Source: Actinomycetota bacterium (GTDB lineage: Bacteria; Actinomycetota; UBA4738). Taken from it: a stretch of DNA of 64,000 nucleotides. The notes under the pieces are model-generated. The model saw only the letters and a program-made list of their open reading frames with translations, did not search any database and was not told the origin of the DNA. Numbering within the stretch: position 1 is the stretch's first letter; each line of letters begins with the position of its first letter. Positions 3,224-50,438 of this stretch are shown in pieces. The position numbers were made by a program, and so were the translations under genes. The stretch covers positions 8,309 to 72,308 of the forward strand of contig JBOGVA010000074.1 in NCBI GenBank assembly GCA_050692195.1, read 5' to 3'.

Positions 3224-3594
3224 CTACGGGCGCCTGATCCTTGCGGCGAGGAGGTCGCGGATGCTGACCACCCCCTTGACCTCCCGGCCCTCCACCACGG
3301 GGAGGTGCCGAAAGCCGCCTTGAAGCATGAGCTGGGCAGCCTCGTCGCTCGTCGTGTCGGGCGTGGCGGTGGTCGGATCCTTCGTCATCCACTCGGATGC
3401 CGGAGAGGTTGTGAGGTCCTTGCCGGAGGCCGCGGCCCGGAGTACGTCCCGCTCGCTCAGGATGCCGATCAGCCACGAGCCCTGCATCACGATCGCCGAG
3501 CCGACCCGGGCCTTGACCATCTCTCGTGCCACCTCTGCCACGGGCGTCTCCGCGGTCGTCTTCACGACGTCCCCGGACATGATGTCTTGCATCA
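3224..3594 (-). CDS. CBS-domain protein
   Basis: Tandem CBS-like segments (IMSGDVVKT...VGSAIVM; ...FRHLPVV....VVSIRDLL); start taken at MQDIMSGDVV. Confidence 0.8.
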
Positions 3595-46163: not shown

Positions 46164-46238
46164 GATCGTCTCCTTCCGCTCGCGGTAGCGACTCGAGCAT
46201 CGTAGCGAGTGCGGACCGCTCGTGGTAAACCGCATCGG

Positions 46239-47384
46239 ATGGCCTTCGCCCTAACGCCGGAGCAGCAGCGGCTGATCGAGGAGACGCGGCAGCTGGCTCG
46301 CGACGTGCTGGCCCCGATCTCCCGCGAGGGGCAACCGGGGCGGGTGAACCGGAATCTGGTCCGCGCCCTCGCCGAGCAGGGCCCGCTGCCTCGGCTGTTT
46401 CCGAAGCGGGCCGGAGGCGCGCGGGAAGGTGACGTGTCGGCGCTCGAGCTCTGCTTGATCCGGGAGGCGCTGGCCCAGGGCTCGACGGAGGCCGAGACGG
46501 CCTTCGCCATGCAGGGATTGGGGGCTTACCCGATCCTTCAGTCCGGGACGGAGGAGCAGGTGGCCAGATGGGTGCCTGCGGTGGCCCGCGGGGAGGCCGT
46601 GGCCGCCTTCGCGCTGACCGAGCCCGAGCACGGATCCGACGCCGCCGCCATCGAGCTTCGGGCAGAGCGTGACGGCGATGGGTATCGCCTGAGCGGCGTG
46701 AAGACGTGGATCTCCAACGCGCCGGACGCGGACGTCTACACTTTGTTCGCTCGGACGACCAGTGAGGTCGGGGCGAAGGGGGTCACGGCGTTCGTGGTCC
46801 CAGGGGACAGCCCCGGCCTCGCCGGGTCATCCATCGAGCTTCTGTCACCCCACCCGATCGGCCGGCTGGAGCTGGATGGTGTACCGGTGGGTTCCGGTCA
46901 CGTGCTCGGCCAACTGGACCAGGGGTTCCGGGTGGCCATGCGGACCCTGAACCTGTTCAGGCCGAGTGTGGGCGCCTTCGCCGTGGGGATGGCCCAGGCC
47001 GCCCTGGATGCGGCCATGGACCACGCGGCCGACCGGCTTGCCTTCGGCCGGCCGATCCGAGAGTTCCAGGCGGTCTCTCATCTGCTGGCCGAGATGGCCA
47101 CCCGCACCGAAGCCGCGCGCGCGATCGTGTACACGGCAGCATCCGCCTACGACGAGCGGCGCCCTGGCGTCACCCGCTCATCGGCCATGGCCAAGCTGTT
47201 CGCCACCGAGACCGCTCAGTTCGTGGTGGACGCGGCGGTCCAGATCCACGGCGCGGCCGCGCTGGAGCGAGGGCACCTCCTCGAGCACCTGTACCGTGAG
47301 GTCCGGGCGCCGCGCATCTACGAGGGAACGTCAGAGATCCAAAGGGAGATCATCGCCCGCGAGCTGTTTCGGCCCCCCGAGTGA
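46239..47384 (+). CDS. acyl-CoA dehydrogenase
   Basis: ACAD motifs (AFALTEPEHGSDAAA, YEGTSEIQREIIAREL); start at MAFALTPEQ. Confidence 0.85.
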   Translation: MAFALTPEQQRLIEETRQLARDVLAPISREGQPGRVNRNLVRALAEQGPLPRLFPKRAGGAREGDVSALELCLIREALAQGSTEAETAFAMQGLGAYPILQSGTEEQVARWVPAVARGEAVAAFALTEPEHGSDAAAIELRAERDGDGYRLSGVKTWISNAPDADVYTLFARTTSEVGAKGVTAFVVPGDSPGLAGSSIELLSPHPIGRLELDGVPVGSGHVLGQLDQGFRVAMRTLNLFRPSVGAFAVGMAQAALDAAMDHAADRLAFGRPIREFQAVSHLLAEMATRTEAARAIVYTAASAYDERRPGVTRSSAMAKLFATETAQFVVDAAVQIHGAAALERGHLLEHLYREVRAPRIYEGTSEIQREIIARELFRPPE

Positions 47385-47439
47385 GCCTCCCCCAGTTGAC
47401 GACACCCGGCGTTTGCCTGGCTCTAGGTGAGATGTCTTT

Positions 47440-47487
47440 CATCCCGATTCGGGATGTTGAACATCGCAATTCTAGATGTTATACATC
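47440..47487. promoter_or_regulatory. operator array: three palindromes (CATCCCGA-T-TCGGGATG; GATGTT-G-AACATC; GATGT-TAT-ACATC) overlapping a sigma70-like promoter TTGAAC-N17-TATACA
   Basis: Perfect inverted repeats read directly from the sequence in an unusually AT-rich spacer; palindromes 2 and 3 are about 22 bp centre to centre; the -10 ends about 8 nt before the ATG at 47494. Confidence 0.6.
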
Positions 47488-47493
47488 TTTCCA

Positions 47494-48088
47494 ATGAGTC
47501 TAGACAGCGAGTTTGGTGCGGAGCGAGTGGACGAGCTGCTTCGTGCCTTGGAGGAACAGCTCAGGGGCACTTGGTGCCCGGTTCGAGCTCGTCATCATCG
47601 GAGGAACTGCGCTCCTGGCGCTCGGGCTAATCAGGAGGGCAACCACGGATGTGGATGTCGTGGCCCTCGTCGGTCGAGGTGTGCTCATTCCGGCGGAGCC
47701 ACTGCCCTCCCCCCTCGTTGAGGCAGCCATGAGGGTCGCCCGCGACTTTCGCTTGGCGGGCGGCTGGCTGAACGCAGGACCCGCGGATCTTCTTCGCTTC
47801 GGGCTTCCTGAGGGGTTCGACACTCGTCTGCGAACTCGAACCTATGGCCCTGCTCTGGTCGTCCACTTCGCCAGCCGCTTCGACCAGATCCATTTCAAGT
47901 TGTACGCGATCGTGGACCAGGGCGCTGGCCGGCACGAAGCCGACCTTCGCGCTTTGGAGCCTTCTCCCCAGGAGTTGTTAGCTGCGGCTCGCTGGGCCCG
48001 TACCCACGATCCTTCAGAGGGCTTCAAACAACAGCTCGTGCTAGCACTTGCTCATCTCGGGGTGGCTGATGCAGACGTCGGACCTTAG
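47494..48088 (+). CDS. AbiEii/MenT-like (DUF1814-type) nucleotidyltransferase-fold protein; frame disrupted at a G4 run (47564-47567)
   Basis: GGTALLALGLIRRATTDVDVV matches the GGxAL...RxS/TxDxD NTase signature; N-terminus MSLDSEFGAERVDELLRALEEQLR is in frame 1, the NTase core is in the -1 frame; removing one G restores ...EEQLRALGARFELVIIGGTAL. Confidence 0.55.
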
Positions 48089-49082
48089 GCAGCGCGTCCA
48101 AGCCACGCTCATCGACTTCGTCTGGAGCCAGTGGGTCCAGATGGGAGTCTCAGGCTCTACCGTTCGGCGGGATCGGTGGGCAGCCGACCCTGAGGCCCTC
48201 CTCCTCTTCACCGTTCACGCGGCACGCCGCGACCCCAGGCTATTCGACGAGGTGCTCGACTGGCTGCGGCTGAACGGGAAGCTTCTGAGCGTTCAGCGTC
48301 TGCGAAATTTGGCCGAAGCCGATGATGAGACCCCGCGGCTGATTGGCGCTGCACTCGCGTGGGCGCGGTCACAGAACCCGACGCTCCGATCACGGTTGCC
48401 GATCGACGAGGCGGCCTCGGCTGGTGAGCCAAAGGATCTATTCCTAGCTGACGGGGAAGCCCTCTTGGCTGGTACGCCGGATCCCATCTTTCTCCGCTTC
48501 GGATATCGCCGTCCCCGAGCGAAGCCGAGCTGGAAGTCTCAAGCTCCCAATCCGCTGGCACCGATCAACCTGGCATTCCGGCTTCGTCTCGCGTTCGGTG
48601 TCGGAAGCAGGTCGGAGGTCCTTCGCTACCTACTCACGACCGAACACCCCGAGGCCTCTACCCAGCAGATCGCAGAGGCGACTGCGTTTGCCAAGCGCAA
48701 CGTCAGTGACATCCTCCTTGGGCTGGCCGATGCTGGTGTGGTCGAGACGCGGCAGCGAACGAACGAACGAGTCTACTGGGCCGACCGACGTCGCTGGGCA
48801 TTCTTGCTCGGGGTGGGCATTCGAGAGCTACCAGACTTCGTCGACTGGATCCGGCTGCTGACGGCCATCCGGATCGTTCTCGCGTGGCTGGATGAAGATG
48901 CCAAGGTCGAACGATCCGACTACCTGCGCTCGAGCGAGGCTAGGCGGCTTCTCGATCGCATCCGACCGGACCTGCTCGCCTCAGGGGTGGACGTGGCCGA
49001 CGATCGGAGTGTTGGGACCGAGCACTGGACCGCCTTGGAGGAGACTCTGGAGCGCACGCTGAGGAAGCTGCGTCCTCTCTAG
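48069..49082 (+). CDS. 338-aa protein with internal winged-helix DNA-binding domain, unknown family (candidate cognate regulator/partner of the NTase)
   Basis: Overlaps the NTase gene end by 20 nt; wHTH-like segment STQQIAEATAFAKRNVSDILLGLADAGVVETRQRTNERVYW at residues about 210-270; lower GC than genome. Confidence 0.55.
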   Translation: MQTSDLRQRVQATLIDFVWSQWVQMGVSGSTVRRDRWAADPEALLLFTVHAARRDPRLFDEVLDWLRLNGKLLSVQRLRNLAEADDETPRLIGAALAWARSQNPTLRSRLPIDEAASAGEPKDLFLADGEALLAGTPDPIFLRFGYRRPRAKPSWKSQAPNPLAPINLAFRLRLAFGVGSRSEVLRYLLTTEHPEASTQQIAEATAFAKRNVSDILLGLADAGVVETRQRTNERVYWADRRRWAFLLGVGIRELPDFVDWIRLLTAIRIVLAWLDEDAKVERSDYLRSSEARRLLDRIRPDLLASGVDVADDRSVGTEHWTALEETLERTLRKLRPL

Positions 49083-49104
49083 TGGAGGTCGCGGCGCACG
49101 AAGA

Positions 49105-49121
49105 CATCACCCTAGGTGATG
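49105..49121. repeat. 17-bp perfect palindrome CATCACC-CTA-GGTGATG downstream of the wHTH gene
   Basis: Read directly from sequence; shares the GATG/CATC core with the upstream operators. Confidence 0.4.
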
Positions 49122-49263
49122 TTGGCGGTTGTGGGCTGGCTCGGATCGGGCGGCTGTCTGCGACTTCGGGGATCTGTTTGGCGAAGTGGCCCTTCGCGAA
49201 GCAGTCGTTGCCGATGCAACCTACTCGTGAGGTCCGAGTGACGTCCCCCTCTGGTCCCGTTGG

Positions 49264-49920
49264 CTAGAGAGAGCCAACGGGGTATGGGATTCCTACTGTA
49301 GACAACACGAGCGTATGCAGAGTTTCTCCTTGCGGCAGCGAATCGGTCGGCGAATACATCTGAATATAGATTTCGAGCCCCTGCGTCTCCCACGCGAGCC
49401 GTACGTCATCCGTGTAGACGGTAACCGCTTCCACCTCGCCAAGAAGCCAGTACGTGCCGTTCGCCACAGCCTCTTGAAGTGTCTCTAGAGAGCTCGAGTC
49501 GTCGTCCGATGTGTCATCCGCCCACATGTAGAAGGTCGTTGCCCCACCTCTCACCAGAAAGGCACTTCCGGTGTCCCGGATCAGGGCGTAGCCCGACTCT
49601 TTGACAACCTCTCGAACCCAGACGGCTTCCTCAGAGCATTCCGACCAGGGGCCATAGTCGCATTGGCTGGATGGGCTTGGAGTGGATGGCAACCTCGAGC
49701 TGGGGGATCCGAGAACGGAGCTTCCAGACAATGACCTTTCCCCCGGCCGGAATGCGCTCCACAGGCCAAAGACCATTCCCGCCAAGATCGTCAGAGCTAC
49801 CACTCCGGCGAGCAAACGCCGACTGCTCTGCCGACGGCGGACTCGCTGCAGTGTTCTGGCGAACGCCTCATCGGGCTCCGGGTCGAACGAGGCCACTCCT
49901 CGATCCAAGATCTCCTTCAT
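49264..49920 (-). CDS. single-pass membrane anti-sigma-factor-like protein
   Basis: 4-nt overlap with the upstream ECF sigma gene; N-terminal cytoplasmic segment, one TM (LLAGVVALTILAGMVFGLW), extracytoplasmic Ser/Pro-rich domain. Confidence 0.6.
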   Translation of the reverse strand: MKEILDRGVASFDPEPDEAFARTLQRVRRRQSSRRLLAGVVALTILAGMVFGLWSAFRPGERSLSGSSVLGSPSSRLPSTPSPSSQCDYGPWSECSEEAVWVREVVKESGYALIRDTGSAFLVRGGATTFYMWADDTSDDDSSSLETLQEAVANGTYWLLGEVEAVTVYTDDVRLAWETQGLEIYIQMYSPTDSLPQGETLHTLVLSTVGIPYPVGSL

Positions 49921-50438
49921 TTGATCTCCTCTCCAAACTGCCTCCGAAGCGCTGATCTACCCCGGTGCATCCTCACCCGAACGGTTGCCGCTTTGATGCC
50001 AAGGATTCGGCCTGCCTCCTCTGGGTCCAAACCGAGCCATTCCACGAGAACCAGCGCTTGGCGCTGACCTGCAGGGAGTGAGGACAATGCTGTTAGGACG
50101 CGATTCTTGGCTTCGACAGCAGACGACGGGTCGGAGTCGGGTTCTCTGGCAAAGAGCAGCCGCCGACGGACCAGTGACCACCGAATTCTCTTGCGATTTA
50201 GGTTGAGAGCTGTTCGGAACAAGTAGCCAGCGGGAGATGCCATGTTACGGACGGTCTCCCAGCGTTCGTATACGCGGACGAATGCTTCCTGAGCAATGTC
50301 CTCCGCCTCCAACCGATTGCCGCTGAGCAACAGAGCAGCACGGGCTAGGCGTGGATACCAGGCCCTAAAAAACACCTGGAACTCCAGATCAGCCCCAGCC
50401 TTAGCCACGTGGAGGTGCTCGCTCTGCTCGACCACCAT
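49917..50438 (-). CDS. ECF-type RNA polymerase sigma-70 factor
   Basis: Region 2 (FRAWYPRLARAALLL...AEDIAQEAFVRVY) and region 4 HTH (LPAGQRQALVLVEWLGLDPEEAGRILGIKAATVRVRMHRGRSALR). Confidence 0.85.
   Translation of the reverse strand: MVVEQSEHLHVAKAGADLEFQVFFRAWYPRLARAALLLSGNRLEAEDIAQEAFVRVYERWETVRNMASPAGYLFRTALNLNRKRIRWSLVRRRLLFAREPDSDPSSAVEAKNRVLTALSSLPAGQRQALVLVEWLGLDPEEAGRILGIKAATVRVRMHRGRSALRRQFGEEIK

Follow-up and report, generated by a model that had tools for sequence, protein, structure and literature searches.

We analysed a 64,000-nucleotide stretch of an Actinomycetota genome (lineage UBA4738; GenBank assembly GCA_050692195.1, contig JBOGVA010000074.1, positions 8,309 to 72,308 of the forward strand), hereafter the window, whose own numbering is used throughout. 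Our subject is a short array of palindromes at 47431-47487 that precedes a two-gene operon. The first gene, gene A (47494-48088, plus strand), encodes a DUF6036 nucleotidyltransferase (NTase), AbiEii-related and MenT1-like, which is frameshifted in the window and is a putative toxin. The second, gene B (48069-49082, plus strand), encodes a protein of 337 amino acids with a central winged helix-turn-helix (wHTH), a putative repressor and antitoxin. Gene B begins 20 nt before gene A ends (48069-48088, plus strand), an overlap that suggests translational coupling of gene B. Judging from the sequence and its comparison with homologous loci, the array is likely to be the promoter-operator of this operon, autoregulated in the manner of toxin-antitoxin (TA) systems and driving a leaderless transcript.

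Palindromes and putative promoter elements upstream of gene A

The array consists of three copies of a 13-bp palindrome, GATGT-N3-ACATC, starting at 47431, 47453 and 47475, with spacings of 22 and 22 bp. The copies are unequal in quality. The middle one (site 2, GATGTTGAACATC, 47453-47465) is a perfect 6+1+6 palindrome, GATGTT-G-AACATC, and holds the −35 hexamer, and the proximal one (site 3, GATGTTATACATC, 47475-47487) has 5-bp arms around a 3-nt centre (GATGT-TAT-ACATC) and holds the extended −10. The distal copy (site 1, GATGTCTTTCATC, 47431-47443), upstream of the −35, has one mismatch to GATGT-N3-ACATC. A further perfect palindrome at 47440-47456, CATCCCGATTCGGGATG, with 8+1+8 symmetry (CATCCCGA-T-TCGGGATG), arises where copies 1 and 2 meet, from the right arm of the first, the 9-nt spacer and the left arm of the second. 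One Logan contig, L081, has one of its ends at window position 47474, exactly where site 3 begins, presumably because repeated operator copies break the assembly.

A preliminary description of this DNA, which took in 47440-47496 (catcccgattcgggatgttgaacatcgcaattctagatgttatacatctttccaATG), had reported three perfect inverted repeats embedded in a consensus-like promoter. The repeated palindromes are real and all three reported strings are present, but only two of them (CATCCCGATTCGGGATG and GATGTTGAACATC) are perfect, the last pairing only in its 5-bp arms, and the true third copy of the operator is the distal site, which starts 9 nt before 47440. The term consensus-like overstates the promoter, whose TATACA lacks the final T and which a consensus scan did not call, although a TG does make the −10 an extended one. 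Other parts of that description were accurate as they stood: the last two repeats lie two helical turns apart (22 bp) over TTGAAC-N17-TATACA, the −10 ends 8 nt before the ATG at 47494, and the promoter is AT-rich in GC-rich surroundings. GC content drops to 0.47 in 47400-47499; values range from 0.62 to 0.78 over the preceding 2 kb and from 0.59 to 0.69 over the downstream operon.

To place these copies against the background of the window, we searched all 64 kb for GATGT-N3-ACATC with at most one mismatch, using 100 shuffles as a control. Six matches were found where 0.94 were expected, a count that none of the 100 shuffles reached. Three of the six fall inside 57 bp and are the sole clustered or exact copies in the window; a three-site cluster as tight as 57 nt would arise by chance somewhere in the window with a probability of about 6e-6. 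The remaining matches (at 3581, 24413 and 60233) each carry one mismatch, are isolated and unphased, and are near the chance expectation in number.

For the promoter we followed the sigma-70/SigA pattern, with hexamers near TTGACA and TATAAT (TANNNT in Actinobacteria) and a spacer of 16-19 nt. The −35-like hexamer TTGAAC (47457-47462, plus strand) agrees with TTGACA at five of six positions. It is separated by 17 nt from TATACA (47480-47485), which is part of an extended −10, TGtTATACA (47477-47485, plus strand), whose TG (47477-47478) is supplied by the operator's own GATG. At the equivalent site, four homologous loci (L001, L002, L061 and L064) have TAACAT or TATCAT. The start codon of gene A (ATG, 47494-47496, plus strand) follows the −10 hexamer after 8 nt, TCTTTCCA, which contain no Shine-Dalgarno (SD) sequence. 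Both geometric marks of leaderless transcription are therefore found in the window, namely the absence of an SD and a −10 within 6-9 nt of the start codon. The predicted transcription start site is 47492-47494, which would make the transcript leaderless or give it a leader of 1-2 nt.

Conservation across homologous operons

Two protein searches at E<=1e-3 recovered about 2,000 relatives of the NTase and about 950 of gene B, mostly from soil Actinomycetota. We examined homologous loci in two ways: an NTase-anchored genome scan with one genome per species (80 loci), and an independent gene-B-anchored metagenome scan (80 loci, 73 of them with enough upstream DNA). The genome loci come mostly from Solirubrobacterales, Thermoleophilia and other Actinomycetota metagenome-assembled genomes (MAGs) and include 2 Conexibacter isolates, C. 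stalactiti KCTC 39840 (L027) and Conexibacter sp. CPCC 205762 (L028); further lineages are represented by MAGs of Streptosporangiaceae, Gemmatimonadales, Limnocylindrales and Polyangiales. Synteny is strict. In all 80 loci, the gene that immediately follows the NTase is a gene B homologue. Of the 78 genome loci that allowed the overlap between the two genes to be measured, 67 show exactly 20 nt.

The motif accompanies these operons. It is present upstream in 78 of 79 genome loci and in 42 of 51 independent metagenome loci, and in the metagenome set 33 of 38 successive site pairs are spaced exactly 22 bp. Counting sites with at most two mismatches, we found about 1.9 per locus within the 180 nt surrounding the start, whereas 376 kb of flanking DNA yielded 0.05 for each 180 nt, a difference of about 40-fold. 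Altogether, the motif, its 22-bp phasing and the distance from −10 to ATG recur at about 130 homologous loci from other species. More than 100 loci with 55-70% protein identity retain the operator but not the bases around it. Per column, information content reaches 1.58 and 1.35 bits in the two sites, 0.85 in the spacer and 0.13-0.26 further upstream. The site consensus is cGnGATGTcTAaCATCtcG and the column consensus over the loci is cGnGATGTcTAaCATCtcGnttcGaGATGtctgACAtC; half-sites cgaGATGT and ACATCtcg alternate every 11 bp. An inter-site inverted repeat, CATCtcg-N3-cgaGATG, recurs in related loci regardless of the upstream gene, and it follows automatically from extended palindromes phased at 22 bp.

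Two arrangements of the array were seen. In 52 of 79 loci (group A, drawn from L004-L080), the sites lie at −23 and −1 and the start codon falls inside the second copy. Positions −1 to +12 of these loci read G-ATG-TCT-GAC-ATC (for example, L027:2500-2512), an operator copy; since the start and the next three codons are themselves operator, the operator dictates the NTase N-terminus (MSDI, MTDI or MSNI). The window falls in a smaller clade (with L001, L002, L014, L025, L030, L044, L046, L063 and L077) whose members place all of their two or three sites ahead of the ATG. Its nearest relatives, L082-L084, with 70% NTase identity, have the same three sites at 22 bp and carry TTGAAC, TTGTAC or TTGAGT in the middle site. 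Across L014, L030 and L082-L084, a TTGxxx −35 is always in the middle site and a TGnTATACA −10 always in the proximal site, ending 6-9 nt before the ATG. An equivalent of the distal site is seen in L083, L084, L002 and L030, and the GATGTTGAACATC/−35 site recurs in L002, L014, L030 and L083. A proximal site identical or nearly identical to that of the window, GATGnTATACATC, lies 4-7 nt before the ATG in L014, L030, L063, L077 and L082-L084. When the best promoter-like pair was taken from each of the 79 loci, 44 had it ending 11 nt ahead of the start and 16 had it ending 6-8 nt ahead; an SD-like tetramer occurs in 1 of the 79.

The nucleotidyltransferase and its winged-helix partner

Gene A is interrupted in the window. 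The frame that begins at ATG 47494 ends at 47721, after 75 codons, and the NTase core lies in a +1-frame open reading frame (ORF) at 47513-48088. A GGGG run at 47564-47567 (plus strand) contains one G more than the family reading frame, and deleting one G restores a protein of 197 amino acids that aligns end to end with homologues of 193-202 amino acids at 62-74% identity. The repaired N-terminus, MSLDSEFGAERVDELL (MSLDSEF...), aligns with the starts of homologues, including those of 196 amino acids, which identifies 47494 as the family start codon. We considered an assembly error as the cause of the frameshift and set it aside because the same AGGGGC is found in a second assembly, contig L081 of Logan run SRR27067773, although this run may be the MAG's own data. 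The frameshift is probably a genuine inactivating mutation of a toxin-like gene.

At 24.8 bits, the repaired protein exceeds the Pfam DUF6036 cut-off of 23.6, and many homologues have a precomputed PF19502 assignment; its match to Pfam AbiEii stays under the cut-off (21.3 against 22.5 bits) and covers the N-terminal 40 residues only. We modelled the closest intact homologue, P0002, with AlphaFold (predicted local distance difference test, pLDDT, 93). The best match of the model in the PDB was MenT1 (8an4/8an5; probability 1.0, template modelling (TM) score about 0.49, about 20% identity), a similarity that a profile search of the NTase against PDB sequences could not detect. Within the family, T50, D52 and D150 are invariant and K135 is near-invariant. 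The spacing of T50/D52 (+2) and K135/D150 (+15) equals that of T39/D41 and K137/D152 in MenT1, a correspondence of spacing and not a residue-level structural alignment; these four MenT1 residues were mutated in an earlier study (PMC10435456). PADLOC gave no match for the NTase, and a literature search found no paper mentioning DUF6036. In one homologous locus, a second NTase homologue (L047:5033-5539) lies about 2 kb downstream of the first, and the module may be tandem-duplicated there.

Gene B was modelled with high confidence (AlphaFold2, pLDDT 90, predicted TM score 0.90). In the fold search, residues ~165-246 were the only region to match solved structures, namely the wHTH domains of ArsR/SmtB, MarR and TFE-alpha proteins, with CzrA, CadC, SqrR, BigR and MarR among the matches to ~165-250. 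This domain is flanked by about 160 N-terminal and about 90 C-terminal helical residues that have no solved relative. Helix-turn-helix (HTH) family matches in Pfam and NCBIfam all fell under the curated cut-offs, and PADLOC returned generic wHTH matches only. The recognition helix, K209-R210-N211-V212 (KRNV), is near-invariant across homologues, paralleling the invariant GATG/CATC core of the operator. Gene B is the sole DNA-binding candidate encoded in the operon, and we infer that it binds the sites and represses by binding; it is probably both repressor and antitoxin.

Several other identities for the pair were considered and rejected. HEPN-MNT systems place a HEPN partner with an Rx4-6H motif beside a minimal NTase; gene B has no HEPN Pfam match and no histidine in its invariant or near-invariant columns, and its fold search shows the wHTH only. 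A known defence system was discarded since PADLOC does not recognise the NTase/gene B pair, and an origin in a mobile element since gene B has no tblastn match in plasmid or phage collections. No AbiEi Pfam match was found for gene B at E<=1, nor any AbiEi or Rv2827c structure among its top 50 Foldseek matches.

The gene-B-anchored loci offered a view of what happens when the module erodes. The NTase is present in 68 of 73 of these loci and absent in 5. In three (L088:1428-1520, L125:1368-1520 and L163:1336-1520), it is reduced to a short remnant and a phased operator array stands directly upstream of an intact gene B; in the other two (L098 and L161), both NTase and operator are lost. The loss is asymmetric, with none of the 80 NTase-anchored loci lacking gene B as against the 5 of 73 gene-B-anchored loci lacking the NTase (Fisher p = 0.023). 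The frameshift in the window adds to this asymmetry, as do L033:2501-3253 and L077:2501-3271, in which NTase similarity is lost at about residue 171-179 and the frame continues for 205 nt beyond the gene B start, perhaps through 3' frameshifts. A toxin paired with an antitoxin-repressor would be expected to erode in this way, the NTase being lost and gene B retained.

Variants of the operator were compared with the HTH of gene B. One sub-clade (L093, L107, L109, L111, L115 and L134; also L003, L011 and L090) uses another palindrome, GCATT-TGC-AATGC, which is likewise built as 5-N3-5 and lies some 60 nt upstream of the NTase start. A TTGCAA −35 occupies its centre, and a TAAACT −10 is found 7 nt before the ATG. 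The gene B proteins of this GCATT-N3-AATGC clade carry H203, G208 and A213 in the HTH, among 37 clade-specific columns overall for which the HTH is not enriched. The palindrome and the HTH changes may together represent a specificity switch, though the comparison is confounded by phylogeny. Loci with GAAGT-N3-ACTTC (L036, L045 and L052) keep KRNV.

Proposed autoregulation of the operon and its alternatives

Taken together, the comparisons support what the preliminary description had proposed for the locus as a whole. A repeated palindromic operator recurs upstream of the homologous operons, its embedding in the promoter is reflected in the constant placement of TTGxxx and TGnTATACA among the close relatives, and the predicted leaderless transcript agrees with the distance from −10 to ATG in that clade and the near absence of SD-like sequences. 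The assignment to a TA/Abi-type locus likewise appears sound, given a DUF6036/AbiEii-related NTase resembling MenT1, the wHTH of gene B and the strict synteny of the two.

In the mechanism that we propose, dimers of gene B would occupy neighbouring sites and obstruct the housekeeping sigma factor. Site 1 would be covered upstream of the −35, site 2 on the −35 and site 3 on the extended −10, with RNA polymerase excluded as a result. A spacing of 22 bp, about two helical turns, implies that the sites share one face of the DNA, and their unequal quality makes graded occupancy possible, as described for Rv2827c (PMC7319586). The operon would in this way repress itself, as in classic TA-type negative autoregulation. 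Once the promoter is free, RNA polymerase would start at or 1-2 nt before ATG 47494, giving a leaderless mRNA from which gene B would be translated by coupling through the 20-nt overlap. The NTase would act as the toxin and gene B as its antitoxin.

A broader reading goes beyond the single promoter, and we put it forward tentatively, as a possibility somewhat short of an even chance. The DUF6036 NTase and its 337-residue wHTH partner may form an uncharacterised, widespread family of reverse-order, MenT-like TA or defence systems, with a three-domain antitoxin-repressor that has no solved relative and an operator that would play a triple role. Such an operator would be a repressor site, a promoter element and, in most members, the toxin start codon together with the first four codons (MSDI). 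GATG would supply the TG of the extended −10 and the palindrome centres would supply the −35 and −10 hexamers, so that a single protein-DNA contact would both gate transcription start and constrain the toxin N-terminus.

Several points weigh against an autoregulated, leaderless promoter-operator in the window. TATACA matches the −10 consensus at four of six positions and its final conserved T is missing, and the sigma-70 consensus promoter scan called 0 sites at the operator region because of this missing T; we retained the promoter on the comparative evidence. Between the operon and the acyl-CoA dehydrogenase gene upstream of it, a terminator scan found nothing, which leaves room for read-through transcripts. 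Since gene A is frameshifted, the module may be decaying here. In the largest clade (the 52 loci of group A), a −10 that ends 11 nt before the ATG predicts a leader of 3-5 nt, which would not be strictly leaderless. Covariation between the operator and the HTH is not demonstrable, and what ties gene B to the operator is their co-occurrence. Finally, translation could in fact begin at an in-frame ATG within site 3, in which case the promoter would be a weaker one upstream.

This last alternative keeps the same operator and moves translation to the ATG at 47476-47478 (plus strand), which opens an ORF at 47476-47721 in frame with 47494 and would add MLYIFP at the N-terminus; transcription would then come from CTTTCA (47436)-N17-GAACAT (47459), one site upstream. 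It draws on the 52 of 79 loci that have their ATG in the second site and a −10 in the preceding site 11 nt upstream, an arrangement that sites 2 and 3 of the window match exactly. The N-terminus MLYIPHMT of L025 offers a parallel, and P0029, which starts MYII, could likewise begin in an operator copy. However, CTTTCA-N17-GAACAT (three of six matches in each hexamer) is a much poorer promoter than TTGAAC-N17-TGtTATACA, and the N-termini of homologues align to MSLDSEF and not to the six-residue extension. Moreover, in the closest loci of the TATACA clade (L014, L030, L063 and L077), the ATG inside the proximal site is out of frame and a downstream ATG is required, which favours 47494. We consider a start at 47476 unlikely. 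We give still less weight to a host-encoded global regulator, or another factor acting in trans, that would bind the palindromes in place of gene B and leave an ordinary regulated promoter. The missing covariation speaks in its favour; yet the motif accompanies the operon in Solirubrobacterales and in MAGs of Streptosporangiaceae, Gemmatimonadales, Limnocylindrales and Polyangiales, becomes some 40-fold rarer in the flanking DNA, is clustered or exact in the window at this operon only, and stays with gene B after deletion of the NTase.

A role at the RNA level would make the hairpin CAUCCCG-AUU-CGGGAUG the terminator of the acyl-CoA dehydrogenase transcript, or a 5' structure that controls translation. 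Its 7-bp GC-rich stem (47440-47456) is indeed present in the minimum-free-energy fold and lies 56 nt past the stop of the upstream same-strand gene. Against this, the stem lacks a trailing T-tract, the terminator scan was empty, the stability of the fold does not significantly exceed that of shuffles (z = −1.7), and an Rfam search of 47000-48200 at E<=1 matched no known RNA element. The inter-site repeat recurs whatever the upstream gene, as the phased palindromes make automatic, and what is conserved is the sequence (GATG/CATC is invariant) and not pairing alone. We therefore hold such a role to be very improbable. As for a chance cluster of short palindromes in an AT-rich spacer, such palindromes are common in spacers of this kind and the promoter scan was negative, but the shuffled controls, the low probability of the cluster and the retention of motif, phasing and position in more than 100 homologous loci refute it, and we assign it practically no weight. 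The autoregulated promoter-operator is thus the reading that we carry into the comparison with known systems.

In its gene order, the operon resembles the reverse-order TA operons higBA, mqsRA and hicAB, in which the toxin gene comes first and a DNA-binding antitoxin represses at promoter palindromes. The toxin-like gene is likewise first here, but the toxin and antitoxin folds are unrelated. With the ArsR/SmtB and MarR repressors, gene B shares the wHTH fold and dimer-type palindromes overlapping the −35 and −10, and differs in its extra N- and C-terminal helical regions and in a context without metal or ligand sensing. Leaderless actinobacterial TA operons also have a −10 a few nt before the start codon and no SD, leaderless status being assigned here from geometry only; in Mycobacterium tuberculosis, 32 of 37 TA pairs with a mapped transcription start site are leaderless (PMC3898074).

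The closest functional parallels are NTase-based. AbiE, a type IV TA and abortive-infection system of Streptococcus agalactiae, and Rv2827c/Rv2826c (MenA4/MenT4) of M. tuberculosis are, like the present operon, bicistronic, combining an NTase-fold toxin with a winged-helix partner. AbiEi and Rv2827c each repress an NTase-TA operon by way of several inverted repeats that overlap its promoter (PMC7319586), and negative autoregulation of that kind is what we predict here; the window NTase, moreover, is near the threshold for Pfam AbiEii. Nevertheless, we rejected membership in AbiE. The order is reversed, with the NTase first here and the AbiEi antitoxin encoded upstream of its toxin in AbiE. Gene B lacks an AbiEi domain and any other AbiEi feature, and its wHTH is central, whereas AbiEi joins an N-terminal wHTH to a C-terminal antitoxicity domain. 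The operators differ in geometry, AbiE having 23-bp repeats placed 3 bp apart (13 bp in Rv2827c), each bound by a monomer (PMC7319586), in contrast to the 13-19-bp palindromes phased at 22 bp in the window. The NTase itself is DUF6036 and nearest to MenT1, whereas AbiEii is DUF1814. MenAT1 of M. tuberculosis (Rv0078B/Rv0078A) includes the closest solved structure to the window NTase, MenT1, which is similar in size (about 190 amino acids) and alike in its T-x-D and K-(15)-D spacing. Its antitoxin MenA1, however, is a 68-residue protein usually encoded upstream, unlike the 337-residue wHTH partner encoded downstream here.

As a kind of element, the array is ordinary, a textbook TA-type autoregulatory promoter-operator; the gene family that it controls is uncharacterised. 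Its value lies in the entry point that it gives to an unstudied family, with a precise operator (GATGT-N3-ACATC at 22-bp phasing) and, in gene B, a candidate for the repressor-antitoxin that would act on a MenT1-like nucleotidyltransferase, a protein often found in poorly cultured soil Actinomycetota. Once confirmed, gene B would represent a new type of antitoxin for tRNA-modifying NTase toxins, and the array a compact DNA element acting as operator, promoter and coding sequence together. The frameshift in the window and the deletions elsewhere, with operator and gene B kept, form a natural series for the decay of the module.

The surroundings of the operon were also inspected. In the window, its neighbours are a metabolic acyl-CoA dehydrogenase gene (46209-47384) and, on the minus strand, a pair resembling extracytoplasmic function (ECF) sigma-factor genes (49264-50438). 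Close relatives of the pair lie near conflict-type genes, which suggests a variable-island context: a divergent gene with an AbiEi_4 domain (L083:936-1448, minus strand) and AAA ATPases of the DUF234/DUF4143 types (L082:3054-3361 and L083:3087-3582). Directly after gene B, a 61-codon ORF with a GTG start (window 49082-49267) overlaps the gene B stop and is called as a gene in the Logan assembly, and a predicted gene of 49 codons follows gene B in L084.

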